Below, in pieces: positions 15,941 to 17,674 of a stretch of 39,381 nucleotides of DNA (positions are counted from its first letter, which is position 1; every line of letters starts with the position of its first letter). The notes below the pieces were generated by a model, which saw only the letters and a program-made list of their open reading frames with translations, was not told the origin of the DNA and did not search any database. Both the position numbers and the translations under genes were made by a program. The stretch comes from Shigella phage ESh6: the sequence record ON528719; one strand, written 5' to 3'.

Positions 15941-17674
15941 ATGGAATTAGAACAAGATAGTATATTCCTTTATCATGCTCCTTGCGAGAACTGTGGGTCT
16001 TCTGATGGTAACTCAGTGTATTCTGACGGTCATCAATTTTGCTTTGTATGTGAGCACAGGGTTCCAGCCTCAGAAGAACGCAAACAGGAGCTATCATCAA
16101 GAAGACGTATAGTCGGTGGAGGTAAACCAATGACCTACAACGTATGGAACTTCGGGGAATCCAACGGACGCTACTCTGCGCTAACTGCGCGAGGAATCTC
16201 TAAGGAAACCTGTCAGAAGGCTGGCTACTGGATTGCCAAAGTAGACGGTGTGATGTACCAAGTGGCTGACTATCGTGACCAGAACGGCAACATTGTGAGC
16301 CAGAAGGTTCGCGATAAAGATAAGAACTTTAAGACCACTGGTAGTCACAAGAGTGATGCCCTGTTCGGGAAGCACTTGTGGAATGGCGGTAAGAAGATTG
16401 TTGTCACAGAAGGTGAAATCGACATGCTTACCGTGATGGAACTTCAAGACTGTAAGTATCCTGTAGTGTCGTTGGGTCACGGTGCCTCTGCCGCTAAGAA
16501 GACATGCGCTGCCAACTACGAATACTTTGACCAGTTCGAACAGATTATCTTGATGTTCGATATGGATGAGGCAGGACGCAAGGCAGTCGAAGAGGCTGCA
16601 CAGGTTCTACCTGCTGGTAAGGTACGAGTTGCAGTTCTTCCATGTAAGGATGCCAACGAGTGCCACCTGAATGGTCACGACCGTGAAATCATGGAGCAAG
16701 TCTGGAATGCTGGCCCGTGGATTCCTGATGGAGTGGTATCGGCTCTTTCGTTACGAGAACGAATCCGTGAACACTTATCGTCAGAGGAATCAGTAGGTCT
16801 ACTTTTCAGTGGCTGTAGTGGCATCAACGATAAGACACTTGGTGCCCGTGGTGGTGAAGTCATTATGGTCACTTCTGGCTCAGGTATGGGTAAGTCAACC
16901 TTCGTCCGTCAACAAGCTCTCCAGTGGGGAACAGCAATGGGCAAGAAGGTAGGCTTGGCGATGCTTGAGGAGTCTGTTGAGGAGACCGCTGAGGACCTTA
17001 TAGGTCTACACAATCGTGTCCGACTGAGACAATCCGACTCACTAAAGAGAGAGATTATTGAGAACGGTAAGTTCGACCAATGGTTCGATGAACTGTTCGG
17101 CAACGATACGTTCCATCTATATGACTCATTCGCCGAGGCTGAGACAGACAGGCTTTTAGCTAAGCTGGCCTACATGCGCTCAGGCTTGGGCTGTGACGTA
17201 ATCATTCTAGACCACATCTCAATCGTCGTATCCGCTTCTGGTGAATCCGATGAGCGTAAGATGATTGACAACCTGATGACCAAGCTCAAAGGGTTCGCTA
17301 AGTCAACTGGGGTGGTGCTGGTCGTAATTTGTCACCTTAAGAACCCGGACAAAGGTAAAGCACATGAGGAAGGTCGCCCCGTTTCTATTACTGACCTACG
17401 TGGTTCTGGCGCATTACGCCAACTATCTGATACTATTATTGCCCTTGAGCGTAATCAGCAAGGTGATATGCCTAACCTTGTCCTCGTTCGTATTCTCAAG
17501 TGCCGCTTTACTGGTGATACTGGTATCGCTGGCTACATGGAATACAACAAGGAAACAGGATGGCTTGAACCTTCAAGTTACTCAGGGAAGAAGAGTCACA
17601 CTCAGAGTCAACAGACTGGTCCAAAGACACTGACTTCTGACAGGATTCTTGACGATTTCAATACGACTCACTAA
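15941..17674 (+). CDS. 4: Primase-helicase gp4A (as read; C-terminal ~30 codons appear frameshifted)
   Basis: 577-aa ORF; Cys4 zinc-finger primase N-terminus, Walker A GSGMGKST; near-identical to T7 gp4 up to ...EPSSYSG, then diverges into a basic tail. Confidence 0.9.
16130..17674 (+). CDS. 4B: Helicase form gp4B (internal start at Met64)
   Basis: In-frame ATG at codon 64 ([13 protein letters not shown]) preceded by 'ggtggagg', as for T7 4B. Confidence 0.6.
17040..17062 (+). promoter_or_regulatory. T7 RNAP promoter phi4c-like (internal to gene 4)
   Basis: 'caatccgactcactaaagagaga': matches the consensus core with deviations at -17, -13, -2. Confidence 0.55.

Follow-up and report, generated by a model that had tools for sequence, protein, structure and literature searches.

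A one-base shortfall in a G run of the Shigella phage ESh6 record displaces the conserved acidic tail of the primase-helicase encoded by gene 4

Does Shigella phage ESh6 carry a primase-helicase (gp4) whose acidic C-terminal tail has been exchanged for a basic one, or is its genome record one base short near the end of gene 4? The window analyzed here is the whole deposited stretch of 39,381 bp (ON528719), the complete genome of a T7-like phage (Teseptimavirus), and the source paper lists ESh6 with the same accession number, length, and genus (PMC9686686). ESh6 is one among 32 lytic phages that were plaque-isolated on Shigella from Washington DC sewage, and it was sequenced on the Illumina MiSeq platform (2x300) with FLASH read merging, Newbler v2.7 de novo assembly, and a coverage of at least 49.5x (PMC9686686). 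Its nearest relatives in the searched phage collection share approximately 91 to 93% identity with it overall. The record is a circular contig opened at an arbitrary point, with gene 17 (tail fibre) spanning positions 38605-39381 and 1-1047 in frame across the ends, and T7-type terminal repeats are collapsed or unmarked in it. Three ORFs of 133 to 147 aa, located at 4463-4906, 15439-15873, and 23823-24224, resemble T7 genes 2.8, 7.7, and 3.8 (HNH or homing-endonuclease-like). One of them lies after gene 19 and another between genes 3.5 and 4, and the positions of such ORFs differ among relatives.

The deposited gp4 combines a Zn ribbon, a Toprim primase, and a DnaB-like (SF4) helicase in one polypeptide, with matches above the cut-offs to the Pfam families Zn_Ribbon_Prim, Helic-prim_T7_N, Toprim, and DnaB_C (PF08273, PF21268, PF13155/PF01751, and PF03796), and it shares 99% identity with homologs of 566 aa. 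Residues 1 to 549 are normal, residues 550 to 577 are out of frame, and the missing G falls at the Gly549/Glu550 boundary. A first-pass annotation, made from the letters alone, had proposed that the annotated frame goes astray at a GGG run and continues into the phi4.3 promoter, and the sequence bears this out. The run has three Gs, and the TAA of the frameshifted ORF (17672-17674) falls inside phi4.3. The same 577-aa form is held by NCBI as "primase/helicase protein [Shigella phage ESh6]" (P0031), an exact match in a full-length protein search. The deposited protein ends in ...DDFNTTH and lacks an in-frame acidic, Phe-terminal tail; this tail sits one frame over, where translation from position 17587 reads it through to the TGA, again as first proposed. 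Downstream, the distance from the phi4.3 +1 position to the ATG of gene 4.3 is 11 nt, the start codon being downstream, and the spacing is the same in T7. The three-G state of the record is a deterministic sequence fact with no statistical pattern in it, and the comparison with relatives is what counts.

Features of the deposited ESh6 genome at the 3' end of gene 4 (positions are those of the window)
Feature	Position	Strand	Basis
Gene 4 (primase-helicase) ORF as deposited, 577 aa	15941..17674	+	ORF list; exact match to NCBI protein
GGG run, site of the 1-nt shortfall	17585..17587	+	GGGG in all relatives (alignments, pattern searches)
Native gp4 acidic tail and TGA (17638-17640), here one frame over from gene 4	17587..17640	+	Translation
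Out-of-frame tail attached to deposited gp4, 28 residues and TAA, matching the gene 4.2 frame in its C-terminal part	17588..17674	+	tblastn, DUF5480 profile
Gene 4.2 (DUF5480), overlapping the gene 4 end, broken: 89 aa, last ~12 residues out of frame	17364..17633	+	ORF list, tblastn, Pfam
phi4.3 class II T7-type promoter CAATACGACTCACTAAAGGAGAC, +1 at 17676	17659..17681	+	Aligns with annotated T7 phi4.3
Gene 4.3, intact, downstream boundary	17687..17899	+	70/70 aa aligned to T7 gp4.3, 98.6% identity

The length of the G run sets ESh6 apart from its relatives. In alignments with T7, phiA1122, 04922B, 64795_ec1, ESh2, AV103, HZ2R8, CICC 80001, WW2, JeanTinguely, and 3A_8767, ESh6 alone is one G short, and GGGG is present in all eight complete relative genomes. 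The 101-nt stretch around the run matched 129 phage records, none of them identical, and among the matches listed each spans 102 nt. When a 60-aa query spanning the junction was used, each of the best 40 phage records covered it only as a pair of segments, read in different frames across 181 nt. A three-G record would rank first with such a query, and as a single piece; these 40 records are all in the four-G state. The exact 25-nt pattern of the three-G state had no match in IMG/VR, and a pattern allowing either state recovered 11 IMG/VR contigs and 4 metagenome contigs, all 15 of which were in the 26-nt, four-G state. GGGG was also read in each of the eight fetched contigs encoding P0032, a gp4 homolog considered below. 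The three-G state was thus absent from every relative among more than 150 sequences, which weighs against a real mutation. An independent assembly of ESh6 was sought by exact-protein look-ups with the 577-aa gp4 and with gp5, and none was found; the fetched contigs are 91 to 96% identical to the window.

The tail itself is equally constant. Among the 120 best full-length homologs retrieved with the full-length protein as the query, 119 are 565 to 567 aa long and have an acidic tail with a terminal Phe, the sole exception being the annotated protein of ESh6 itself. In 24 of the 120, the tail is identical to the restored ESh6 tail, and 11 more distant fragments likewise end in ...DF or ...PF. 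A relative with the basic ...DDFNTTH tail at the end of its gp4 had been named in the first-pass annotation as the finding that would speak against its diagnosis; none was seen, and no record has the three-G run. The core of that diagnosis, that a 1-nt shortfall in the G run displaces a conserved tail, is upheld by these homologs.

Insertion of one G yields a gp4 that is as long as T7 gp4A (566 aa) and has the acidic tail in frame. The restored protein contains no lineage-unique residues, shares 99.6% identity with the gp4 of HZ2R8, and equals P0032 at 566 of 566 residues, with P0032 being read on at least 17 independent contigs (ENA, Logan). At the nucleotide level, comparison of restored gene 4 with the P0032 contigs gives 62 to 67 synonymous and no non-synonymous changes, and comparison with HZ2R8 gives 91 synonymous and 2 non-synonymous changes. 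Codons 550 to 566 vary among relatives by third-position changes of the native frame and one recurrent N/K exchange at position 562, and the tail DNA of ESh6 has no nucleotide differences from the P0032 contigs, with no decay 3' of the shift. Judged from these substitutions, strong purifying selection has acted on the native frame and still does; since that selection reaches the present and no decay follows the shift, the frameshift either is not real or is very recent. Three features of a consensus homopolymer indel are found here, namely, a one-base length change in a mononucleotide run, its confinement to the ESh6 record, and a correction that restores a conserved protein. A real and very recent G4-to-G3 slippage mutation, arising during the isolation or amplification of ESh6 and standing at or near the majority in the lysate, is unlikely, though it retains appreciable weight, and the absence of non-synonymous changes and of downstream decay counts against it.

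The origin of the basic tail explains why the wrong frame stays open. With T7 gp4.2 as the query against the window, the tblastn match changed frame (3 to 2) at 17585-17594, that is, at the G run, and the T7 protein (P0030) matches the tail attached to ESh6 gp4. The family DUF5480 (PF17576) is likewise split in ESh6, with positions 1 to 56 of its 71 positions matched in the gene 4.2 ORF (E = 4e-34) and positions 53 to 71 matched on gp4 residues 548 to 566, and no single ORF of ESh6 gene 4.2 covers the whole 71-position profile. On the strength of these matches, the basic tail on the deposited gp4 is assigned to overlapping gene 4.2, as the C-terminus that this gene naturally encodes. The wrong frame is open for 29 codons, up to the promoter, because it is that of a conserved overlapping gene, and the loss of one base both truncates gp4.2 and fuses its C-terminal end to gp4. 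Neither the identity of the aberrant tail with the gene 4.2 C-terminus nor the breakage of gene 4.2 by the same deletion, as read from these alignments, had been recognized in the first-pass annotation. In T7, gp4.2 is extended by a segment of 40 nt that separates the stop codon of gene 4 from phi4.3, whereas ESh6 and most relatives are without it (17640-17660 versus L003:655-700). The gp4.2 of ESh6-type phages would consequently end in ...DDFNTTH within phi4.3, while that of T7 ends in ...FPDDYEKFRWRVPF. In PhageMaP knockout maps of T7, which leave the overlapping 3' end unresolved, gene 4.2 is scored as dispensable and gene 4A/B as highly essential (PMC11482910). That one deletion breaks gene 4.2 as well as gene 4 is as expected of an accident.

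The three-G run could also be real and be read by programmed recoding, through a -1 ribosomal frameshift or transcriptional slippage, so that both acidic-tailed and gp4.2-tailed gp4 would be made. T7-like phages use an annotated -1 frameshift at gene 10A/10B, and the shift needed here is also -1; however, the native-tail frame is open only from position 17569, which confines such a shift to 18 nt (ACCTTCAAGTTACTCAGG). A scan of the whole of gene 4 found neither an X XXY YYZ heptamer nor any A/T run of six or more or G/C run of five or more, and a -1 slip from UCA GGG AAG would leave both the P-site and the A-site tRNAs mispaired. The 103 nt of downstream RNA has a minimum free energy of -17.8 kcal/mol, whereas shuffled versions average -20.1 (z = +0.68) and 155 of 200 shuffles fold as well, and the tail is in frame in all relatives, so no recoding site is conserved. 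Recoding at the gene 4 G run was rejected for want of a slippery heptamer, a stimulatory RNA structure, and conservation, and is extremely improbable; the slippage site that had been listed among the first explanations falls with it.

ESh6 gp5, the DNA polymerase partner, is identical to T7 gp5 at all 13 of the residues checked (K268, H276, R278, K281, K285, K299, K300, K302, K304, K587, K589, R590, and R591), which belong to the basic patches (thioredoxin-binding-domain loops and front patch). The only lineage-unique substitution in gp5, R145H (19120-19122), is outside the tail-binding basic patches, and we know of no link between it and the gp4 tail. A compensated frameshift, with compensating changes in gp5, had been entertained in the first-pass annotation and receives no support from these unchanged patches, which also speak against a real mutation. 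The gp5 gene of ESh6 is uninterrupted (704 aa), and an HNH endonuclease gene lies inside gene 5 in JeanTinguely (L028:17737-20452) and in the P0032 metagenome contigs (L033:12751-15190). The protein with which the gp4 tail was compared at first, gp2.5 (13858..14556), ends in ...EEDSDGDF, which agrees with the intact ...DGDF end given for it. Two substitutions in gp2.5, E222G (14521-14523, in its own acidic C-terminal tail) and A79S (14092-14094), occur in none of eight relatives, and the end is still ...SDGDF.

What a phage would lose with the tail can be gauged from work on T7. According to Notarnicola et al. in 1997 and Lee et al. in 2006, gp4 without its 17 C-terminal residues or its terminal Phe reportedly fails to complement T7 lacking gene 4, which counts against a real mutation. 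The acidic tail, which tethers the helicase hexamer to gp5 DNA polymerase, contacts two basic patches on gp5 (PMC12593628; PMC12230644), in keeping with the role in polymerase contact assigned to it at first. Without the tail, the processivity of the replisome drops from 17 kb to ~5 kb (PMC12593628; PMC8472574), cooperative binding of the fork with gp5 is lost (PMC8835902), and futile excision by the polymerase rises (PMC7073461). Tail-less gp4 keeps its helicase and primase activities in vitro, and leading-strand synthesis with it amounts to ~50% in the presence of gp2.5 and ~12% in its absence (PMC8835902). If the deletion were real, a gp4 whose tail is neutral or basic and stems from gp4.2 would give an untethered, less processive replisome or a defective, sick variant. 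The retained activities, the residual ~5-kb processivity, and the ~50% strand-displacement synthesis with gp2.5 make such a variant conceivable (PMC12593628; PMC8835902; PMC8472574), and of the 566 codons the deletion alters just the final 17 (the last 3%), where a real mutation would be least harmful. Against this stands the fact that ESh6 is a propagating plaque-former (PMC9686686). That ESh6 truly has three Gs and nevertheless forms plaques on Shigella, with the electrostatic, Phe-anchored tether between gp4 and gp5, which is regarded as necessary for T7 growth, dispensable or bypassed in this background, is very unlikely; possible bypass routes in that case are gp2.5 E222G, gp5 R145H, or contacts that do without the tail.

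The quality of the assembly speaks for a real mutation. The other 20 core genes of ESh6 are full-length and in a single frame, and in the sister assemblies ESh1 to ESh3 (ON528716, ON528715, and ON528717), produced with the same MiSeq/FLASH/Newbler pipeline, 21 core genes are free of frame breaks. Consensus from Illumina reads rarely miscalls a four-base run, and with clean assemblies at the stated coverage, a consensus error requires special pleading. ESh1 to ESh3 are flagged UNVERIFIED in GenBank, and ESh2 has only five annotated features; given the absence of frame breaks, the flag is no sign of sequence errors and seems to reflect annotation or format, not sequence quality. An apparent genome-wide excess of 1-nt homopolymer deletions in ESh6, six at first, was discarded, as three of them are common to some relatives and hence natural. 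When each genome was taken in turn as the focal one, ESh6 had two lineage-unique 1-nt indels against zero to four in most relatives, which is ordinary and provides no evidence for error. Two further 1-nt deletions found only in ESh6, at ~5012 and ~38589, are both intergenic, and one of them shortens TTT to TT just upstream of the ribosome-binding site that serves gene 17. More frame breaks and an excess of unique indels, looked for as marks of an assembly prone to error, were not seen in ESh6, nor were frame breaks seen in ESh1 to ESh3. With the other genes and the sister assemblies clean and the indel count ordinary, the ESh6 assembly bears no independent mark of being error-prone. Deposited phage genomes do contain small indels of the consensus, as in the ligase gene of CICC 80001, and this was counted toward an artefact.

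Taken together, the three-G run is probably a consensus artefact of base calling, assembly, or editing in the ESh6 record, and we infer with reasonable confidence a technical cause in preference to a mutation truly present in the stock that was sequenced. This reading is favored because the three-G state occurs only in ESh6, the correction is exact, the tail is universal and under selection, the gp5 surface is unchanged, and the isolate propagates. Of the two possibilities left from the first-pass annotation, sequencing or assembly error is preferred, and a genuine recent mutation keeps the lesser weight. The deposited sequence is one G short of GGGG, and the growing phage almost certainly makes a normal 566-aa gp4 whose acidic tail binds the helicase hexamer to the basic patches of the polymerase; the 577-aa, basic-tailed form would be a product of the consensus and not a protein on which ESh6 depends. 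The event is most likely a one-base defect in the database record, or at most in the laboratory stock, and involves no new biological arrangement or mechanism.

The main value of this result lies in curation. The C-terminus of the 577-aa ESh6 primase/helicase in GenBank and nr (ON528719) is a chimera with gene 4.2, and the protein is unsuited to family alignments, tail-motif statistics, and structure prediction. ESh6 belongs to a set of phages that were screened as candidates for therapy, and a check of the stock would be cheap and worthwhile. If the deletion were real and the phage fit, ESh6 would provide a counter-example from nature to the in vivo need reported for the gp4 acidic tail, which is unlikely on present evidence.

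Compared with T7 gp4A (566 aa), ESh6 gp4 has the same domain order and ~95% identity, and the restored protein has the same length, with its 17-residue tail differing only at N562K. In the deposited form, by contrast, 28 residues from the gene 4.2 frame stand in place of these 17, and both the terminal Phe and the acidic charge (net +1 against +6 or +7 acidic) are lost. T7 gene 4.2 likewise overlaps the 3' end of gene 4, and ESh6 differs from it in that the family is split over two ORFs at the G run. The -1 frameshift of T7 gene 10A/10B belongs to the same phage group and has the same direction, but the gene 4 site has no slippery sequence, stimulatory structure, or conservation. A closer parallel is the DNA ligase gene 1.3 of Escherichia phage CICC 80001 (L025:12057-13078), which is divided into two CDSs by a frameshift at ~12647 and is comparable as another deposited T7-like genome in which a single base breaks a reading frame. 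The ESh6 case resembles homopolymer errors in deposited phage genomes in being a one-base run change that is present in only one record and whose correction restores a conserved protein, and it departs from them in that the data are from Illumina and not from a homopolymer-prone chemistry and that the rest of the assembly is clean.
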